From: Bacillota bacterium
Lineage (GTDB): Bacteria > Sysuimicrobiota > Sysuimicrobiia > Sysuimicrobiales > Segetimicrobiaceae
Assembly (NCBI GenBank): GCA_021324975.1
Contig: JAJPIA010000101.1
Coordinates: 13,924 to 77,923 of the forward strand
Direction: 5' to 3'
Length of the DNA stretch: 64,000 nucleotides
Part shown: piece by piece, positions 22,237-30,653 of the stretch
Numbering within the stretch: position 1 is the first letter of the stretch
Layout: every line of letters begins with the position of its first letter
Notes under the pieces: generated by a model
The model's database searches: none
What the model saw: only the letters and a program-made list of their open reading frames with translations
Told to the model about the DNA's origin: nothing
Program-made: the position numbers and the translations under genes

Positions 22237-22626
22237 TTACGTCAGAAAGCGGTGCTCTAGCTCCGGGGCAGGCACGCGACACGTCGCCGACTTCCCGAAC
22301 CATGCATAGCGATGACGTGCCACCCATCGATATACGGCATCTCGAATAGGCCGCGGAATGATGCGAAGGAACCCAATGAGCCGCCACGGCGGCGGGAGGC
22401 GCGCGCACACCTCAAGGATGGCCGCCGAATCAGTATAGACGCGACGACCCGCGACGACGACAATGCCCGCGAGGACGGGCGCGGGCAGGTGCAACTCCTC
22501 GAGTATCGCGCGCCCCCGCGCAGACTGCTGCGCGCCAAAGACAAACACCCCGAACCGATCGTGATCGATGACGAAGTTCACCCACGCATTGCAGAGGTTG
22601 CACACGCCGTCGAACAACACCACCAT
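22237..22626 (-). CDS. DCC-family thiol-disulfide oxidoreductase (DUF393)
   Basis: MVVLFDGVCNLCNAWVNFVIDHDRFGVFVF...QS..G..IL is the DUF393/DCC1 CxxC N-terminus. The start is ambiguous (ATGs at 22626, 22695 or 22731); I chose 22626, which has a GAGGG RBS. Confidence 0.8.
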   Translation of the reverse strand: MVVLFDGVCNLCNAWVNFVIDHDRFGVFVFGAQQSARGRAILEELHLPAPVLAGIVVVAGRRVYTDSAAILEVCARLPPPWRLIGFLRIIPRPIRDAVYRWVARHRYAWFGKSATCRVPAPELEHRFLT

Positions 22627-22696
22627 CGCACCCTCAGGAGGCGCTTGGATGCGGCCGGCTCGTCCGACCGAGCCCGGCGACTTCGCGTGACTCATG

Positions 22697-23509
22697 TTAA
22701 TGGACAAGCACCCCGCCGAATTTCTGCGCAAAATAATATACCGCTGGATACGTGGCCGTAAACGACCAGAAGAAGATGTTCAGCCCCATGCATAATCCAA
22801 TCGTGAAGTGAAACGCCGCCCCGGCTGCGAAAAACCCCAGCGCGACGCGCGGGTCGATCCAACAGACGACCGGGCCACAGCATTCATAACACAAGACACC
22901 CCAGCAGGCAGCGCGGGCCGCCCAACGGTGCCGCGAGAAAAATCTCGCCAGTGATGGCGCGCCATATGCGTGCGTATTCAAGATGCCGGCGATGGCCTTG
23001 CCGCTGCGCCACACCGGGGAGATCGCCTTCGCGACGCCCGAGGTGAGATAGGCGACGACGAGCTGGCCGGCCACGAACCCGAACACGATCGTCAGCATGC
23101 GGCTGGTCGGGTGCAGATAGTACACGAAGAGAGCGGCCAGCACAAGCAGCATCATCTGATCCGAGCCGTCCGTGCCGTACTGGTTTCGGAACAAGAACAA
23201 CATGTGCACGATCAGCATGATGCCGACAGCCACCACCATCCACGCGGAGGCAAGCCCGGAGAGCACCAGGAGCGCCGCCAACAGTTGCAGGCAGACCAGC
23301 ACAAGGATTCCCGGGCAGGACAGCAACACGTTCAGCAACGCGGCCCCGACGCCGCGTGCCGTCCACCGAGCATTGGTCGAGAGAACGCGCCAATCGTACA
23401 ATCCGGCCGGCGAGAACAAACGGCGGGCCACGAGGGTTTCCGCCGCCTGGATCGCGACGCCGATGGAGATGAGAACCTGCGTGGTGCGGAGCAGCGCCGC
23501 CGAGTCCAT
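22697..23509 (-). CDS. HTTM domain membrane protein (vitamin K-dependent gamma-carboxylase-like)
   Basis: Several TM segments and the conserved HTTM block FRNQYGTDGSDQMMLLVLAALF. ATG at 23509 (MDSAALL...); the track start at 23632 overlaps the upstream gene. Confidence 0.8.
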   Translation of the reverse strand: MDSAALLRTTQVLISIGVAIQAAETLVARRLFSPAGLYDWRVLSTNARWTARGVGAALLNVLLSCPGILVLVCLQLLAALLVLSGLASAWMVVAVGIMLIVHMLFLFRNQYGTDGSDQMMLLVLAALFVYYLHPTSRMLTIVFGFVAGQLVVAYLTSGVAKAISPVWRSGKAIAGILNTHAYGAPSLARFFSRHRWAARAACWGVLCYECCGPVVCWIDPRVALGFFAAGAAFHFTIGLCMGLNIFFWSFTATYPAVYYFAQKFGGVLVH

Positions 23510-23514
23510 TGTGT

Positions 23515-24039
23515 TCAGATGCGGTGGAAGCGGGACAGGAATACTACGTCGCACGCCCGCGCGGACCCGCGTCCGTAGGAACGGGCCACGGCAAACTGCG
23601 TGTACACGGCGGATGACGCATGCGGCTGGCACGTGACGAAATTCAGCAGGGCGAGGAATCCGGTGTCGATCAACATGAAGTCCGGATCCTCACGGTGGTA
23701 CGGAGCGGAGTGCCGTAGCTCGTTGCCGAGATCCGAAAGCCCTTTTTGGAAGCGCTTACGCGGGTTCCACAGCGATCGGAGCGGTCCCGGGTGAAACGGC
23801 ACCTCTCGCCAGCGCATGACGTCTCCACACGCCAGTTTGTCGCGGTACAGAAGATGGGTATCGGTCGTCGCGGGGTTCGGGGCAAAGAACGTCCACGCCG
23901 GTATCATCGCGAAGTCGTCGTACCGCTTGAGAGCCAGGACCCAGCCCTTCAAGCGGAACTGGTAGGCTATCGTTACGAGGAGCCAGACCGCGAACAAAAC
24001 GGCGGCAACTGCTTCGGTCCCGTCCGGGCGACCAAGCAC
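23515..24039 (-). CDS. hypothetical membrane-associated protein, upstream partner of the HTTM/DCC pair
   Basis: 174 aa with an N-terminal TM helix (AVAAVLFAVWLLVTIAYQF), no motif I recognise, and a stop 6 nt before the HTTM start. Codon usage is coherent with its lower-GC neighbours. Confidence 0.5.
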   Translation of the reverse strand: MLGRPDGTEAVAAVLFAVWLLVTIAYQFRLKGWVLALKRYDDFAMIPAWTFFAPNPATTDTHLLYRDKLACGDVMRWREVPFHPGPLRSLWNPRKRFQKGLSDLGNELRHSAPYHREDPDFMLIDTGFLALLNFVTCQPHASSAVYTQFAVARSYGRGSARACDVVFLSRFHRI

Positions 24040-24048
24040 GATCGCCCC

Positions 24049-24468
24049 TCACGACGACTGCGAGACCGAAGCCGCGCGGGCTTCGAGAAGCTCCTGCACC
24101 GACGCGTTCGGGTCAACGGGTTGAGTCCGGGGCCGCAGGCCGCGCTCGCCCGGAGTACAGGCCCGGACTTCGTTTCGACCTTGCGCGTACCGCGCAGCGT
24201 GTGCTTCGGCAATTTTGGCGTGTGCTTCGGCGCGGGCGGCGTGCTCGTGCGCCCGCTGGGCCATTCGTCTCGCTGCCACAGCGAGTTGCCGAGCTTCTTC
24301 GGCTTCTTCGGCCTCTTCGGCTTCCTGGGCGGCCTGACGGCGGTCTTGAGCGAGGACGTCCCCGACGGTCAGATACTCTTTCTCGGGCGGGAGCACCCCG
24401 GCAATGTCTCGCTCGGCGTTGGTCTCTCCCGTTGCACCGGGTGCGTTTGTTCCAGAAGGACTCGCCAT
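24049..24468 (-). CDS. hypothetical coiled-coil / low-complexity protein
   Basis: The ATG at 24468 (MASPSGTNAPG...) gives about 140 aa rich in Ala/Glu/Gln with an (EEA)n repeat. It may be spurious. Confidence 0.3.
   Translation of the reverse strand: MASPSGTNAPGATGETNAERDIAGVLPPEKEYLTVGDVLAQDRRQAAQEAEEAEEAEEARQLAVAARRMAQRAHEHAARAEAHAKIAEAHAARYAQGRNEVRACTPGERGLRPRTQPVDPNASVQELLEARAASVSQSS
24294..24325. repeat. short tandem hexanucleotide repeat (cttcggc-type), encoding EEAEEAEEAEEA on the minus strand
   Basis: Seen directly: cttcttcggcttcttcggcctcttcggcttcc. Confidence 0.6.
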
Positions 24469-24808
24469 GGCCGACCACCCCCAAGATTCTTGGATTCCGC
24501 TTGAACGCGCCGAGTAAGTACAGGGCCAGGAGAGTGCCGGAGGATAGGACGAAGAATCTATGGAATCACTGCGACGCATACGCCGGAATTCCGCGCTATC
24601 TGCGGCCGCAATCACGTAAATTGGGCCGTTAGTTCGACGTGAACATGGAATTCCTTCTGCGCCAACTCTCGACCATTTGCATCCGCTCTCGAGTGAGCGC
24701 GCGCACATTCCGGGCTCACACGTAGGTAACCACACCACTCATCCTCCAGAAATCGGATCAGCCTCATGCTAGGGCGCACGAACGGCTCGCGAACAGGCGC
24801 GTTGGGGG

Positions 24809-27221
24809 GTGAAGAGAATGGCGGCCGCGTGGTCGAGCAAATCCACGACTCCTGCTTGCCTGCAGACCGGTTTCGGCCGTTTCGGTGAAGCCCTTCCGTT
24901 GGACGGCCAGATCAGCTGCGGAGCCACGGCTATCACCATGTCGGTGCTGTGGCTCATCAAGAATCGCTTCACACAGCTTCGACCATCACCCCGGTCGGCC
25001 CACGTAGCCGAGGACCTGGTCCGTGTGTTCGACGGTCTCGCGTATGCGAACGTGGGAGGGCAGATTATCGCCGAAGACTGGTATCGATACGCCGTCGAGA
25101 CGTACCTTGCGTTGAAAGGAATAGGACGAGGCCGATTGGAGATCTGTCGCCGGGTCCCCGCACTCGAGTGGTTCGCGAAGATGAATCAAAATCAGACAGT
25201 CGTCAATTTCGCGGTCGGGTGGTATGGCTCTCCCAAGGATTCGGACACCTTCCAACGCCATGGTCAACACTGGCTCACGCTGCTCGACCAGGATCCCGAT
25301 AGCGGTGTCCTCACGGTCAACAACCCGATGCCGCGGACATTTCCCGGCACGGCCGCCCAAAACCCCCAACACCTCAGAGCGACGCCATTCGAGGGTAGGA
25401 CCAACCCGGCGCTTCCCCGCGAGGACTTCCTTCAAATTGCGACGGTTCGCGCGCACTCGCACGGCCGGCGAGCCGGCATTCTTGAGACGGGGTATGCGTG
25501 GACGATCCACGAGAGCGCGTTACCGTCAGCGGCCGGTTACACTCCTGACGCCTGCGAACTCGAAACGCTGCGCTACATCAACGGCGAGTTCGCCGACTTG
25601 GAGGTGATCGCCCCGCTGGAAGGACGCGGCGGCATCCTCAAATGGGGGCGAGGGAAGCTCATCCTGGCGAATACGAACACGACGACCGGAACCAATGAAA
25701 TTTACGAAGGACCGCTCGTAAGCATACACGCGTCCGAGACGCCCTTCGGCACCGGCACGATCAAGCTGTTCGGCGGCGGAGGCTTGGTGCTCAGCCCCAG
25801 GAACGGAGCCGGGGCGGGCGTGACGTCGCGTGTGGCCGGAGCGCCGCAGGGTGGCGTGGCATTTGGGGGCGGCAACAGCGTAGAGTTCGACCGCAATGGG
25901 CATGCGTCGCTCACGGTCACGTTGGGTGGATGGACGGACGGCAACACGGCGAATCTCACGCGATCGCACAGGGGGACGCTACGCGTCATCCCGGGCTCTG
26001 GGGTAGAGTCGCTTGGTCACGACGAGCGGTTGCTCGTCGCCGGCGAAGGTCGCAATCTGCCGCCCGTCACAAACGGCATGGTGGCGCCGTATGTCGTCGC
26101 GCAGGATCGGGATGGCTCGGGTGCGTTCCTACGCTACACCAAGAGGGATGGGTTCGTCTCTGCGACGATGTCGTCGTCTTCGACGATGCCGATCGACGAC
26201 TCAACCGACGACACCATCTACCATGTAGAAAGCGACCAGACCATCGCCGCCGGCAGAGAAGCGAAGGCGTACGCGATGTGCCTTGATCCTCACCGCGTTG
26301 TCCGTGTGGCGGGCGATGCCGCGCTCCGGATCGGCAACGACAGGCGGTCTCCCGTGGCCGGGGTCATTCTCAACGGCGGGACGATTGCCGGCGGGACCTT
26401 GTCATTTGAGGATCGCGAGGGCCTGATTTATAGCGGTCAGCGTGGTCCGGCCGCTGCGAGGATCACGAGCGACATCTCGGGCTGCCGGGGGATCACGTTC
26501 TTCGGGCCCGGCGAGATCAGGCTGGACGGGGCGAACTGGTATCGCGGCGGCACCGAGATCCATTCAGGCTGGGTCGTCGTGGAGAACACAACCGGCACGG
26601 GGCTGGGGAGTGACGACGTCCTGGTCCGGACCGGCGGAACCCTGGTCATTCACGCCGGGGCCCGTGTCGCGGGCAAGGTGAGCCTTGAACGGGGCTCACA
26701 CCTCATCCTCAAAGGCGGCGCAATCGGGGGGTCTCGACATTAAGTATTCTGGCCACTCGGACAAGGGCGGCATCCTGAAGGGCTTCGGCAATGTTGTCGG
26801 GGCCTCGGAAGTGTCGGGAACGATCCGCGCCGGACGGACGATCGGGACCCTCACGTTCGAAGACCGGGTCTTGTTCGCCACGACCTCATTTTACTGGACA
26901 CTGGTCAGGCTCGACGACGCCGACGCGCACGCGGGTGTGTACTGGAATGCCCTCAGGTTTCGTGGCCCGGCGAAGCTCGGCGCCGAGGGAGACGGCTTTT
27001 TCGTGCTGCTGCATTTTCAGGACGTTCCCGATCCCGACAGCAGCCATCCGTTCTGGCGCCGAGAGCACCGGTGGCTGCTGGCTCAATTCGACGCCAGCCC
27101 GTACGAGTGGTTGGTGAATTCTCCCCGCGGGAATTTCGTGTTCGCGCACGGAACGTTTCGCGTCGAACCTGAGGGTGACCACCGAGCCTATCTCGTGTAC
27201 AAGCCGGCGCCTGCACACTAG
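24809..27221 (+). pseudogene. large protein with N-terminal C39-like papain-fold cysteine-peptidase domain and C-terminal autotransporter-associated beta-strand (PATR-like) repeats; reading frame broken at a G6 tract
   Basis: The N-terminus has QISCGATAITMSVLWL (Cys) and HGQHWLTLLD (His), as in C39-like peptidases. The C-terminal half carries Gly/Thr-rich beta-repeats (GTIKLFGGGGLVL, GGTLSFEDREGLIYSG, TGGTLVIHAGARVAGKVSL). The ORF ends at 26743, but a -1 change in GGGGGG (26726-26731) joins it in-frame to ORF 26685..27221 (...GGAIGG|LDIKYSGHSDKGGILKG...). Confidence 0.6.
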
Positions 27222-29893
27222 AGAGCCCGCACAGCCTGGCCGCCCGACCAGTCGGCCTCGGCGAGCGCGTACCTCACGGCCTGTTCGAGCGTCATCGCGC
27301 GCCCCTCGGCAATCCGTGCGGTCGCCGCGTCATCGCCAAGCGCTGAGCGCAGTCCCCGGAGGACGTCGCCGACGTTCGCGTTGACCCTGCTGACCGGCAG
27401 GCGCAGACCGAACGCCTTGAGTCCCGCCTCCGCGGCGCCGAGAAGGCGCGCGGCACGCTCGGCCTGTCCCCGCGCGGCCTCAAGCAAACCGATATCTTCG
27501 AGGCCGGCAATCATCCCCATCCTGTGTTTGACCTCCCGCCAGATTGCGAGCGCGTCCCTGTGCAGCTGCCAGGCGGTGTCGTAAGCGCCCTCACGAAGGG
27601 CCACCACGCCGAGGTTACCGGTAACGTATCCGACGAGCCATTTGTTGCCGGTTTCGCGGCATAGCATCAGGCTCTCCGTGTAAAATGTGCGCGCCGCGGC
27701 CAGGCGCCCCTCGGCGGCCGCCAGATAACCGAGGCTGTTCAGCACTCGGGCCAGATCGTTCTTATCGTCCGCCGCCGCAAACAGACGCCGCGCCTCATTG
27801 AGGAACGCGGCCGCCCGCCCAAAATCGCGCCGCCAAAATGCCAGTCTGCCAAGCCCGTGCAGGGCGTCGGCCGCACCAAGACCGTCCTCGAGCGATCGGG
27901 CGATGGCCAACGCCTGCTCCAACGCCGCCTGCGCTGCGGCAGCATCCGCGAGGACGGTGGCCGAGTAACCGATGTACCGGAGCGCGCGGGCTTTGAGAAG
28001 CGGTGGCGATTCCCCCGTCCGGAGGGCGATCGCGAGCCGCTCTCGCGCCTCGCGATGATGGCCGCGCACGTACCAGAACCACCACAACGCACAGGCCAGC
28101 CGGAGGCCCGGTTCGGCCTCTGCGGACGCGGCGCACCAGTGCAGCGCGCCCCGAAAGTTATCATGCTCGGCTTCAAGCCGGTCCAACCACGCTACCTGCG
28201 CCGGCCCGCGAATTTCCGGCTCCGCCTGCTCCGCCAGCGCCAAGTACCAGTCTCGGTGGCGTCGCAGAACGTCCACGGCCTCCTGAGACTGCTGCAGCTT
28301 ATCGTGGCCGTATTGGCGTATACTCTCGAGGAGCCGGTACCAGCCGCATCCCTCACGTTCGTCGAACAGCACGAGCGACTTGTCCACGAGGCGCGTCAGC
28401 AGTTCGAGAACGTCGTCTTCTTCCAGACCGCCTCCGCCGCAGATCTGCTCGGTCGCTTCCAGCGTGAAATCTCCGGCGAACACGGAAAGCCGCCGAAACA
28501 GGATGCGCTCACGTTCCGATAAGAGGTCATGGCTCCAATTCAGCATTGCCCGCAGTGTTTGGTGTCGTGGGAGCCCCGTCCGGCTGCTGCTTGTGAGCAG
28601 TCGAAAGCGATCGTCCAACCTCGTCGCGATCGAGTCGACCGACAGGACCTTGACCTGCGCCGCCGCCAGCTCGATCGCGAGAGGAATCCCGTCCAGACGG
28701 CAGGCCACCTGCGCGACCGCGGGCGCACTGCTGCTCGTCAAGCGAAATCCCGGCCGGCTCAGCGCCGCCCGCTCGACGAACAGGCGCACGGCTTCATACC
28801 CCAGCAACTCCTCGACCGGCGGTAGGGCCTGGAGATTGGGAGCCGACAGCGACGGAACACGCCAGACGACCTCGCCCGACACGCCCAACGGTTCGCGGCT
28901 CGTCGCGACAATCCGCAGCCCGGCGCAGGCGCCCAGCAGGACCGCGGCCAGTTGCGCGGCCCCGGCGAGCAGATGCTCGCAATTGTCGAGGATGAGGAGC
29001 AGCGACTTGGGATGCAGCGCGTCAACCAGCGTATCGGTCAACGAGCGGCGCGGTTGCTCGGGTATGCTGAGCGCCGACGCGACCTCCTTCGCGATCAAAT
29101 TTGCGTCCGACAATGCGGCCAGCTCGATCAGCCACGCGCCGTCAGGGTAGCGGCTCACGAGTTCGGAGGCAACTCGGAGTGCGAGTCTCGTCTTGCCGAC
29201 CCCCGCGCTGCCCGTCAACGTGACCATGGCCGTCTCCGATAACGACCGCTTGAGCTCCGCGACCTCCCGCTCACGTCCAATGAAGCTCGTCAGCTGGCGA
29301 GGGAGGTTGTTGAGGAGGGCGTCCAGCGACCGGAGAGGTGGAAACACAGGCATCAAGTCCGAGCCCGTCACCTGAAACAGTCGTTCAGCGCGGGCCAGGT
29401 CTCTGAGCCGGTGAGCGCCGAGGTCGCGCACGCCCAGCCCTCGGGGCAGATCCGTCTCCACGAGCGCGTGAGTCGCCGCCGACAGCAGAATCTGTCCTCC
29501 ATGGGCGGCATCGCAGATCCGGGCAGCCCGGTGCACGTCCATGCCCTCATACCCGGTCTCGGTCATCACGGGCTCTCCCGTGTGCAGCCCCATCCGCACT
29601 CTGACGATCGCCTGCTCCGGCCAGGTATGAGCCGAGAGTGCCCGCTGGGCCGCCACGGCGGCCGCCACCGCGTCGCGCGCGCGTGAGAATGCGACGAAGA
29701 ATGCGTCTCCCTCGGTACTGATCTCACGTCCGTGCCACTCTTTGAACGCGGCCCGCAGCAACCGATGGTGGTCGGTCACGACGCTGACGTAGCGATCGCC
29801 AAGATCCTCGAGTAATCGCGTGGACCCCTCGATGTCGGTGAAGAGAAGGGTAACGGTTCCAGCCGGCACACGAGTCATCGGCGGCCTCCCCAC
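27218..29893 (-). CDS. class III adenylate/guanylate cyclase domain fused to STAND/AAA+ NTPase and TPR repeats
   Basis: N-terminal cyclase homology domain (VTLLFTDIEGSTRL...GDAFFVAFS...RMGLHTGE), a Walker A motif (GSAGVGKTRLAL), and a long C-terminal TPR/helical repeat region; 891 aa. No C-terminal LuxR HTH is detected. Confidence 0.85.
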   Translation of the reverse strand: MGRPPMTRVPAGTVTLLFTDIEGSTRLLEDLGDRYVSVVTDHHRLLRAAFKEWHGREISTEGDAFFVAFSRARDAVAAAVAAQRALSAHTWPEQAIVRVRMGLHTGEPVMTETGYEGMDVHRAARICDAAHGGQILLSAATHALVETDLPRGLGVRDLGAHRLRDLARAERLFQVTGSDLMPVFPPLRSLDALLNNLPRQLTSFIGREREVAELKRSLSETAMVTLTGSAGVGKTRLALRVASELVSRYPDGAWLIELAALSDANLIAKEVASALSIPEQPRRSLTDTLVDALHPKSLLLILDNCEHLLAGAAQLAAVLLGACAGLRIVATSREPLGVSGEVVWRVPSLSAPNLQALPPVEELLGYEAVRLFVERAALSRPGFRLTSSSAPAVAQVACRLDGIPLAIELAAAQVKVLSVDSIATRLDDRFRLLTSSSRTGLPRHQTLRAMLNWSHDLLSERERILFRRLSVFAGDFTLEATEQICGGGGLEEDDVLELLTRLVDKSLVLFDEREGCGWYRLLESIRQYGHDKLQQSQEAVDVLRRHRDWYLALAEQAEPEIRGPAQVAWLDRLEAEHDNFRGALHWCAASAEAEPGLRLACALWWFWYVRGHHREARERLAIALRTGESPPLLKARALRYIGYSATVLADAAAAQAALEQALAIARSLEDGLGAADALHGLGRLAFWRRDFGRAAAFLNEARRLFAAADDKNDLARVLNSLGYLAAAEGRLAAARTFYTESLMLCRETGNKWLVGYVTGNLGVVALREGAYDTAWQLHRDALAIWREVKHRMGMIAGLEDIGLLEAARGQAERAARLLGAAEAGLKAFGLRLPVSRVNANVGDVLRGLRSALGDDAATARIAEGRAMTLEQAVRYALAEADWSGGQAVRAL

Positions 29894-29957: not shown

Positions 29958-30653
29958 TCACTCGTTCACCGACCGCGGTAGACGCCGGCGCAATTCGCCC
30001 GGCTTGAGCACGGCCACGACGCCGCGGCGGCATTGCACCAACCCTTCGTCGGCCAGCAGTCGAAGCCACCTGTTGACGCTCTCACGCGTTCCCCCCACCA
30101 CTTCCGCGAGCTCCTCCTGAGTCAGCTGGGGTGGGCCCAAGGTGCCGTCCGGCCCGCGCCGCTCGCCTGCCTCGGCCAGCGTCAGGAGCACCTTGGTCAA
30201 GCGCGTGGGACCGTCCAAGAACACCGCGTCGTGCAGGAGGTCCGTCGTCCGCCGCAGGCGGCGACTCAAGGCAGCGAGGAGGGCCGCGGCGGTATCCGGA
30301 TGGCGCCGTAAAAATGTGAGAAAGTGCTCGCGCTCCAGCGCAAAGAACTTTGATGGCGCCCGTGCGGTCGCCGTGGCCGATCGCTCGCCACCGTCGAGGA
30401 GGGCGAGTTCGCCGAAGAACCCACCCGGGCCGAGTAGTGCCAGGATGATCTCCCGGCCCTCGGGAGACATAATGGTCAGCTTGACTTCGCCGGAGTGAAT
30501 CAAGTACAGAGTTGCTCCGGGGTCTCCTTCCGAGAAGACGACGGCGCCCTTCCGGTAGGTGCGAGGCCGAAACAGCTGGGCGAGGGCGTCGGATTCCGCC
30601 GTCGATAGTCCGGCAAAGAGTGGGGTCTGCGCGAGAATGCGCTCGACGGACAT
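29958..30653 (-). CDS. Crp/Fnr family transcriptional regulator (cNMP-binding + HTH)
   Basis: cNMP-binding beta-barrel motif (GEVKLTIMSPEGREIILALLGPGGFFGELAL) and a C-terminal HTH (TQEELAEVVGGTRESVNRWL). Confidence 0.9.
   Translation of the reverse strand: MSVERILAQTPLFAGLSTAESDALAQLFRPRTYRKGAVVFSEGDPGATLYLIHSGEVKLTIMSPEGREIILALLGPGGFFGELALLDGGERSATATARAPSKFFALEREHFLTFLRRHPDTAAALLAALSRRLRRTTDLLHDAVFLDGPTRLTKVLLTLAEAGERRGPDGTLGPPQLTQEELAEVVGGTRESVNRWLRLLADEGLVQCRRGVVAVLKPGELRRRLPRSVNE

Follow-up and report, generated by a model that had tools for sequence, protein, structure and literature searches.

The window, the 64-kb stretch of DNA analysed here, carries on its + strand a gene (24818..27221) whose reading frame is broken at a run of six G residues (26726..26731, + strand). 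As it stands, the first open reading frame, ORF1 (24818..26743, + strand), encodes 638 native residues followed by Ser-Arg-His and a stop, its end reading ...KGGAIGG SRH*. The second, ORF2 (26685..27221, + strand; 178 aa from a TTG at 26685), lies in the +1 frame relative to ORF1, (26685-24809) mod 3 being 1, and is homologous to the family described below only from 26732 onward. Both the GGGGGG at 26726-26731 and the stop three codons past it had been reported in the initial annotation and are borne out by the sequence. Translation of ORF1 is more likely to start at the ATG at 24818 than at a GTG at 24809, which would give 644 aa; in public assemblies, gene callers gave ORF1 versions of 601 and 641 aa. 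A second GGGGGG (24804..24809, + strand) lies 9 nt upstream of the ATG in the context GGGGGGTGA and, to judge from its sequence, is probably part of the ribosome-binding site. The last 4 nt of ORF2 overlap a convergent regulator gene (27218..29878) of the adenylate-cyclase/STAND-ATPase/TPR type. On the other side, a DCC1-like protein and three unannotated proteins are encoded on the opposite strand. No functional link was found in the neighbouring genes on either side, and Rfam and tRNA scans of the window gave no matches.

When one G is deleted from the run, the two frames join into an uninterrupted one that codes for 800 aa if read from the ATG and for 803 aa if read from the upstream GTG, in agreement with the initial estimate of about 800 aa. 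The site then reads ATC GGG GGT CTC (Ile-Gly-Gly-Leu) and the junction ...KGGAIGGLDIKYSGHSDKGGILKGFGNVVG... The fusion had been described as seamless, and this holds: five full-length homologues and an orthologue from Candidatus Binatia align with the repaired protein end to end across the break, and the frame is uninterrupted in all close homologues. Up to about 26750 the third-position GC signal follows the ORF1 frame, and beyond that point it follows the ORF2 frame. The break falls in a conserved motif, L-x-L-x-G-G-[TA]-[IV]-x-G, the extra G lying within its Gly-Gly codons. Orthologues have no tract at this site, where P0002 reads ATC GGT GGG ATC and the Candidatus Binatia locus L004 reads GGC GAC. 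With a three-sequence alignment as the query only one genome locus was found, in Candidatus Binatia.

The repaired gene encodes a papain-like protease, a beta-helix of PATR repeats and a C-terminal cap. The N-terminal domain (24818..25522, + strand, about residues 1-235) is a predicted papain-fold (clan CA) cysteine peptidase. Its candidate catalytic residues, Gln16 (24863-24865), Cys34 (24917-24919), His151 (25268-25270) and Asn169 (25322-25324; all + strand), are the sole polar residues invariant in an alignment of 49 family sequences and occur in the papain order. In the structure model this domain is papain-like, its nucleophile placed at the N-terminal end of the central helix, and the predicted fold matches those of IdeS and staphopain. 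A first model built from 6 sequences had left the domain unresolved (pLDDT <50), which the 49-sequence alignment cured. The label proposed initially, C39-like, was largely right as far as the papain fold is concerned, and its connection with Pfam Peptidase_C39_2 (PF13529) is a loose one. The window N-domain does not match this profile even at E <= 10, and the family consensus reaches 23.1 bits (E 1.2e-4, profile positions 12-142 of 143) against a gathering threshold of 24 bits. Matches occur in 6 of the 49 family members, the best with an E value of 3.7e-5, and no curated family matched the window protein at its own threshold. Strict C39 peptidases form the N-terminal domain of ABC exporters and cleave double-glycine leaders. 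We rejected a bacteriocin-leader peptidase of this strict kind, since here the domain is joined to a beta-helix, with no ABC transporter domain anywhere in the protein.

The right-handed beta-helix (25550..26918, + strand, about residues 245-700) spans the frameshift. In an AlphaFold2 model of the repaired protein (pLDDT 90.3, pTM 0.91), pLDDT exceeds 90 on both sides of the junction and one continuous helix is predicted to run across it, the break being placed inside a continuous strand (628-641) and not between domains. The family-homologous part of ORF2 supplies the last helix rungs (motif GGILxGxG...G.LTF) and the cap, a predicted beta-sandwich of about 100 residues. The autotransporter-type repeats named in the initial annotation are confirmed, with the PATR profile matching 45 of the 49 members and the window protein scoring 25.2 bits against a cut-off of 27. 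Structural matches are to autotransporter passengers, and the C-terminal fragment of the IcsA passenger and the autochaperone region are among the structural and sequence matches of the family. ORF1 keeps the whole protease domain and 85% of the helix, and the truncated protein might have residual function.

The architecture is that of a recurrent family, often provided with a predicted signal peptide and a PEP-CTERM anchor. It had first been considered an unusual combination, a description that does not fit its recurrence in about 50 clusters at 50% identity, in which every full-length homologue reads through the site uninterrupted. A signal peptide is found in about two-thirds of the relatives, and PEP-CTERM in 29 of 49 as well as in the family consensus. 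The window protein and P0002 do not have the signal peptide; the former begins MAAAWSSKSTTP..., where the mature N-terminus of its relatives lies, and no signal-peptide coding sequence occurs upstream of the gene in any frame. It ends ...YKPAPAH* with no PEP-CTERM anchor, and the tail is likewise absent from its clade, composed of the window protein, P0002, P0003 and L004. For this particular copy, the presumption of a surface protein is therefore not supported. No autotransporter beta-barrel domain was matched in any of the 49 members, and only about 100 residues, modelled as the small beta-sandwich, follow the helix. Other decay products of the family include genes broken into two or three pieces and a deletion remnant with a complete ORF of 279 aa. 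A word-indexed protein search with either the C-terminal module or the N-domain alignment as query returned too few matches for a census of truncation points, and nothing relevant was found in the literature on the sample accessions or on PATR, PEP-CTERM and cysteine protease.

The run at 26726-26731 is the longest homopolymer within the gene, all others being of 5 nt or less. In the window as a whole (69% GC), 18 G or C runs of at least 6 nt were observed, where first-order Markov shuffles gave 52 +/- 6; the longest run present is a C7. The G6 run in itself is statistically ordinary for the window. A scan of the window for homopolymer-associated frame breaks returned only ordinary gene junctions or putative shadow frames.

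A stretch of 13.8 kb that contains the G6 run recurs with 100% identity in a Logan assembly of SRR5579871 and in JGI 3300027826, and ORF1 and ORF2 were also called on contigs of 145.9 and 179.6 kb. The identical G6 is thus present in at least four assemblies (contigs of 24.7, 84.9, 145.9 and 179.6 kb), which may stem from one site or from overlapping read sets and are not fully independent. This comparison covers assembled contigs, and minority G5 or G7 variants may exist among the reads. Because the sequence is identical in all of these, the G6 is very probably real and not an artefact. Among 5.8 billion protein clusters, none with 90% identity or more was an intact allele. Peptide patterns gave no match in a metagenome collection, nor did a DNA pattern allowing 4-8 bases for the G run, a result that is uninformative on G5 or G7. 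One further record, P0009, was considered as a second ORF2 allele from an independent population and was rejected; it differs only in how the TTG start is rendered, as L in one record and as M in the other.

Our preferred reading, to which we give a probability of about 0.6, is that a real and recent insertion of one nucleotide (G5 to G6) has produced a young pseudogene or loss-of-function allele through an ordinary frameshift and not through an evolved switch. The frameshift ends translation after residue 638 and three foreign residues, which costs the protein about 160 residues comprising the final rungs of the helix and the cap. ORF2 nevertheless shows no decay: it keeps every residue that is invariant across the family in the alignment of the C-terminal module, and the ratio of ORF2 to ORF1 identity with homologues is 0.83-1.02 compared with 0.81-0.98 between intact genes. 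The lesion therefore appears to be young. According to this scheme, one G inserted into the Gly-Gly codons of the conserved motif would have broken a gene of ~800 residues, and the truncated product, without its C-terminal rungs and cap, would most likely be unstable or non-functional. This expectation derives from the family's matches to the C-terminal region of the IcsA passenger and from the autochaperone role of that part of the passenger, which in classical autotransporters nucleates and stabilises the beta-helix. The resulting loss-of-function allele would have become fixed in the sampled population. G6 would simply be the most slippage-prone spot in the gene, and reversion by slippage would take place only at ordinary mutation rates.

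An undecayed ORF2 would equally fit continued selection on ORF2, whether through recoding, a split gene or frequent reversion. One alternative is a slipped-strand phase switch or hot-spot contingency locus, in which gain or loss of a G would toggle the gene from a full-length state to a truncated or "off" one and back, with the window caught in the "off" state, and in which the Gly-Gly codons at this motif would tend toward G runs in GC-rich genomes. We regard this as unlikely, but it draws on several observations besides the undecayed ORF2 and the position of the break exactly in the longest homopolymer of the gene. Four to five other metagenomic members of the family have a break no more than about 10 codons from this Gly-rich motif: L007 carries an indel in a G run (AAGGGGGAACG) at or near it that recurs in two sequencing runs, L006 shows GG to G at the conserved Gly, P0121 ends ...GGTAAGG and is followed by an ORF overlapping it by 4 nt, L009 is broken about 10 codons downstream, and P0161 is an ORF2-like fragment. 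By our own count and arithmetic, five of 16 frameshift-like ORF ends fall within 12 of 840 profile positions, against an expectation of about 0.2. States of both +1 and -1 are represented, in line with changes in tract length, and runs of 5-7 G lie near the position in 4 of 7 family loci.

Against such a switch, known poly-G/C contingency tracts are typically of 8 nt or more, well above G6, and the tract is absent from the closest orthologues. Runs of this size are depleted in the window (18 vs 52) and not enriched, all assemblies have G6, and no intact allele is on record. The suggestion of a classical contingency locus, made when the run was first noticed, is not upheld on these counts. L006 and L009 both come from one ENA assembly series (sample ERZ25039496), whose sister assembly ERZ25039467 (L010) has a split sulfatase, suggesting error-prone long-read contigs, and the several frameshifts per gene in L007 and in the P0121 contig resemble decay or sequencing error. 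Against the preferred reading, a purely random-lesion model does not predict breaks of 4-5 other members near one motif. A further reading, which we consider unlikely, is that proteins of the family naturally and repeatedly break at GG[TA][IV]xG at the helix/cap junction, where GC-rich Gly-Gly codons would form short G runs. This would act as an evolvable "off" or release switch of low grade, by which cap and anchor would be lost and the protease kept. Independent +1 and -1 indels may then have arisen in different soil lineages (window, L006, L007, L009, P0121, P0161).

It is quite improbable that the extra G is a consensus artefact of sequencing or assembly and that the organism has an intact G5 gene. 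Homopolymers are classic sites of indel errors, the perfect preservation of ORF2 would be explained at once, and the assemblies that carry the window sequence may share reads; other public assemblies of the family also break in similar G-rich contexts, some together with other obvious frameshifts. G6 was, however, recovered by different assemblers and projects on the four contigs listed above. Record names suggest JGI/SRA short-read data, in which a run of 6 nt seldom acquires a consensus indel, and no gene of the window is obviously broken by any of the other 17 runs of at least 6 nt.

We give very little credence to the possibility that recoding of the G6 template, either by +1 ribosomal frameshifting or by transcriptional slippage, still yields the full-length protein. 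On GGG-GGG-U, the P-site Gly-tRNA would slip during the pause over the rare codon UCU in the A site, and reading would resume at the abundant CUC. A +1 slip on the run would restore exactly the ancestral ...IGGLDIK; in neighbouring genes UCU is the rarest Ser codon (1.4 per 1000) and CUC the commonest Leu codon (45 per 1000), the G run itself is Shine-Dalgarno-like, and ORF2 is undecayed. But the frameshift is common to no homologue and nothing is conserved as a recoding signal. Out-of-frame codons are rare by default in a GC3-rich gene, and a hungry-codon context is therefore expected by chance. RNA structure is not significant (z = -0.98), no Rfam frameshift element is present, and G6 is short for transcriptional slippage. 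A prfB-like shift at the UAA stop (CAU-UAA) was rejected since, in homologues, the codons after the run follow the ORF2 frame (LDI) and not SRH, the equivalent positions being IAV, VEV and LII, with alternating hydrophobic residues. Equally hard to credit is a functional split, with the protease plus helix and the cap module made as two separately translated polypeptides acting jointly or independently: the TTG start at 26685 is preceded by AAGGTGA, the homologous split in L006 shows the GTGA overlap of stop and start that coupled genes typically have, breaks are found repeatedly at one module boundary and ORF2 is undecayed, but the break here lies within a continuous helix strand, ORF2 would have no export signal and its first 16 residues would be out of frame, a split is shared by no diverged pair of sequences, there is no sign of selection on the split state, and more than 50 relatives are single polypeptides.

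With a young inactivating frameshift as the preferred reading, the locus would be a routine homopolymer frameshift, fittingly annotated as a disrupted gene and not as the two hypothetical proteins of the public gene calls. The analysis also brings about 50 or more clusters at 50% identity together as one coherent, uncharacterised family, with a putative Gln/Cys/His/Asn papain-type site on a barrel-less, autotransporter-like beta-helix, often apparently PEP-CTERM-sorted. It would represent the cysteine-protease counterpart, in environmental bacteria, of the serine-protease autotransporters. If the clustering of breaks is real, it would point to a mutational hot spot or to a tolerated truncation point shaping the secreted-protease repertoire; if technical, it marks a sequence context causing systematic assembly indels. 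Should the motif be a genuine recurrent break point, such a switch would exist outside the host-adapted pathogens in which contingency loci are known.

Among clan CA peptidases, the N-terminal domain was compared with IdeS/Mac-1 (C66), the staphopains (C47), Peptidase_C39_2, the phytochelatin-synthase-like Alr0975 (C83) and AvrRpt2 (C70). Protease-carrying autotransporters, such as the SPATEs Hbp, EspP and Pet, the subtilase autotransporters Ssp and fusolisin, and IgA1 protease, have a serine protease head in place of the predicted papain-fold cysteine peptidase. They also have a C-terminal 12-stranded beta-barrel translocator, whereas the helix of the window family ends in the ~100-residue beta-sandwich cap, behind which 29 of 49 relatives carry a PEP-CTERM anchor. 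Another comparison is with the autotransporter-associated beta strand repeat proteins that bear PEP-CTERM in Verrucomicrobiota and other soil bacteria; they have the PATR helix and the C-terminal cap module in common with the window family, and the relatives P0006 (Chthoniobacterales), P0010 and P0160 (Horticoccus luteus) are given names of this type by their sources. The window clade differs from them in having no PEP-CTERM tail. With the poly-G/C contingency loci of Neisseria, Haemophilus, Campylobacter and Helicobacter, the locus has in common a G run in the coding sequence of a protein that is secreted or surface-exposed in the family at large, where a one-base change shifts the frame. Unlike in those loci, the run is only of 6 nt, is not conserved in orthologues, is not over-represented and shows no length polymorphism among assemblies. 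Those loci belong to host-adapted bacteria, while the organism of the window is an uncultured environmental bacterium.

The gene at 24818-27221 (+ strand) is split by a run of six G residues at 26726-26731, its longest homopolymer. The upstream part, ORF1, extends on the + strand from GTG 24809 or ATG 24818 to 26743 and ends in ...AAA GGC GGC GCA ATC GGG GGG TCT CGA CAT TAA. ORF2 (26685-27221, + strand) lies in the +1 frame relative to ORF1. Deletion of one G generates a single open frame, 803 aa from the GTG or 800 aa from the ATG, in which ...KGGAIGG is followed directly by LDIKYSGH.... Third-position GC (GC3) is highest in the ORF1 frame until ~26750 and in the ORF2 frame beyond, so the coding signal switches frame exactly at the G6 site. 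This confirms the initial annotation in its claim that the run divides one gene whose frames are fused by removing one G. ATG 24818, located 9 nt 3′ of a Shine-Dalgarno-like GGGGGGTGA, appears the more likely start. A second GGGGGG, at 24804-24809, lies directly 5′ of the start region, overlaps GTG 24809 and precedes ATG 24818 by 9 nt; it is probably a ribosome-binding site, and a change in its length would alter spacing and leave the frame unaffected. The gene has a GC content of 63% and a GC3 of 0.76, compared to a mean GC3 of 0.87 in the other high-GC3 ORFs of the window and a window GC of 69%, an atypical composition which may reflect horizontal acquisition or low expression.

When the fused protein was searched against 5.8 billion protein clusters, the hits were ORF1 itself plus five homologues of full length: P0002 (806 aa, 55% identical) and P0003 to P0006 (33–42%). 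All five are uninterrupted and align end to end across the G6 site. A genome scan also identified an intact orthologue, 44% identical and with a signal peptide, in a Candidatus Binatia MAG. In an alignment of 49 family sequences no member other than P0039 is interrupted. At the DNA level, the closest orthologue reads ATC GGT GGG ATC at the homologous site and the Binatia locus ATC GGC GAC. Since neither carries a G tract, the simplest history is expansion of a G5 (ATC GGG GGT CTC) to G6.

The 13.8 kb surrounding the gene, G6 included, recur at 100% identity on a 24.7-kb contig of the SRR5579871 Logan assembly and an 84.9-kb contig of JGI 3300027826; two further contigs, of 145.9 kb and 179.6 kb, also carry these ORF1 and ORF2 products. 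What looked like a second ORF2 variant was rejected as a separate allele, since it differs solely in the notation of the TTG start. Among the 5.8 billion protein clusters there is no record of an intact allele at ≥90% identity. Two metagenome scans, one with peptide patterns and one with a DNA pattern allowing 4–8 bases at the G run, gave no match. The proteins of neighbouring genes are singletons at 90% identity, so that the organism is known from this sampling only. The additional G is very probably genuine and has become fixed in the population sampled, with the proviso that the assemblies carrying G6 may not be independent.

Among the readings of the split, the pseudogene alternative of the initial annotation is the best fit: the lesion would be a recent single-G insertion at the point of a conserved papain-like-protease/PATR gene that is most prone to slippage. 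An alternative is recoding, in which the ancestral peptide would be restored by a +1 slip on GGG-GGG-U. In frame, the run is followed by UCU, a rare codon (1.4 per 1000), and in the +1 frame by CUC, a common one (45 per 1000), but out-of-frame codons are rare by default in a GC3-rich gene, the shift is absent from all homologues, the RNA folding around it is unexceptional (z = −0.98) and there is no Rfam match. A shift at the stop codon is excluded, as homologues are already in the ORF2 frame for the three residues that come after the run. A functional split into two polypeptides is unlikely because the break would fall within a strand (628–641) of a continuous helix in the predicted structure. 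The classical phase switch of the initial annotation is not supported, since the tract is short, is not conserved in orthologues and shows no polymorphism among assemblies, and G/C runs of ≥6 are not enriched in the window (18 observed versus 52 ± 6 after first-order Markov shuffling, with a C7 as the longest in the window), a G6 run being unremarkable for DNA of this composition.

An AlphaFold2 model of the fused protein, built from the 49-sequence alignment, has a mean pLDDT of 90.3 and a pTM of 0.91; close to the junction, a loop (644–647) is its sole weak segment. The N-terminal domain (residues about 1–235) includes Gln16, Cys34, His151 and Asn169, the only polar residues invariant in all 49 sequences; they occur in papain order, and Cys34 opens helix 33–48 in the model. 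Peptidase_C39_2 matches six of the 49 members (best E 3.7e-5), the family consensus, at 23.1 bits, falls short of the cut-off of 24, and the domain of the window protein itself has no match. The invariant residues and these marginal scores identify a clan-CA papain-fold peptidase, so that the earlier domain reading was largely right, although its "C39-like" label holds only as a remote link to that Pfam family; a C39 leader peptidase was rejected. The last ~100 residues fold into a small beta-sandwich cap in which the motifs W-N-x-L and F-W-x3-H-x-W are conserved, and no autotransporter barrel was found in any of the 49 sequences.

When 1.84 billion representatives were searched exhaustively with a profile, about 50 further full-length proteins of the same architecture were retrieved. 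The combination of protease and beta-helix, initially considered unusual, is thus a recurrent family architecture and no oddity of the window locus. About two-thirds of relatives carry an N-terminal signal peptide and 29 of the 49 a C-terminal PEP-CTERM; the window protein and P0002 belong to a subgroup with neither. The alignment resolves into two subtypes: the larger, about two-thirds, has a Sec signal peptide, in most cases together with a PEP-CTERM anchor, while about 15 members, including the window protein and P0002, begin at the mature N-terminus (MW.DP...), several with an Arg/Gln-rich C-terminal tail in place of PEP-CTERM. The frameshift itself is of low novelty, the uncharacterised family of moderate novelty.

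Four small genes (22237-24738, − strand) lie upstream and divergent, encoding a DCC1-like thiol-disulfide oxidoreductase, a 270-aa multi-pass membrane protein, and proteins of 174 and 229 aa without a family match. The block is kept in all assemblies of the organism and has no evident connection with the protease gene. A convergent gene (27218-29878, − strand) for an 886-aa regulator (adenylate/guanylate-cyclase, STAND/AAA ATPase, TPR, HTH) has a 4-nt overlap with the 3′ end of ORF2 and is followed by one for a Crp-family cNMP-binding regulator (29958-30653).

Several fragments from the profile search end or begin at the Gly-rich motif homologous to window position 26726. In P0039 (L006:5920-6030), ORF1 ends in ...LAGGTVAAP; the next ORF, of 198 aa, is in the −1 frame, and its start overlaps the ORF1 stop in a GTGA. 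The lesion is best read from the sequence as GG to G in the conserved Gly codon. P0069 (L007:1300-1420 and 2360-2470) is a three-piece gene whose second break, in AAGGGGGAACG at K-G-G-T-I, was found in two sequencing runs. P0121 (JGI 3300047160), read from the protein record, ends in ...GGTAAGG and the next ORF overlaps by 4 nt. P0078 (L009:2561-5010) is broken about 10 codons downstream of the motif and again near its N-terminus, and P0161 (JGI 3300043313) is a fragment resembling ORF2, preceded by a foreign leader of 11 residues. By our own count, which includes the defining case, five of 16 frameshift-like ORF ends fall within 12 of 840 profile positions, versus ~0.2 expected. Directions are mixed (+1 and −1), and four or five breaks lie no more than about 10 codons from the equivalent of position 26726. 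Conserved Gly-Gly codons near the motif form G5–G7 runs in four of seven loci, which probably explains part of the clustering, whether mutational or technical. Several of the sources, moreover, have an error-prone or decayed appearance. L006 and L009 belong to a single ENA assembly series; on a contig of a sister assembly, which carries the intact homologue P0005, a sulfatase (L010:1125-2523) is split into overlapping ORFs of 157 and 313 aa, suggesting indel errors in this series (ERZ250394xx, "contig_N" names), which bears on the weight to be given to the L006 and L009 breaks. The L007 and P0121 contigs show several breaks per gene. P0099 (JGI 3300067032, 2.6-kb contig) is a complete 279-aa ORF in which the first ~86 protease-domain residues are fused to the C-terminal module, deleting profile positions ~98–640, with the right-hand boundary adjoining the same motif; it is either an assembly chimera or a decay remnant, and as the latter would represent decay of the family in nature. 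The recurrent breaks could be biology or artefact, and any biological claim depends on a read- and census-level check.

As to the age of the window lesion, ORF2 keeps all residues invariant in the C-terminal module, and the ratio of its identity with homologues to the corresponding value for ORF1 (0.83–1.02) is the same as between intact genes (0.81–0.98), which suggests that the lesion is young or that ORF2 is still under selection. ORF1 retains the protease and about 85% of the helix but lacks the cap and the last rungs (motif GGILxGxG...G.LTF). The C-terminal segment of the passenger serves, in classical autotransporters, as an autochaperone for the helix, and the matches obtained include the IcsA passenger C-terminal fragment and autochaperone region; by analogy, the truncated ORF1 product is probably unstable.
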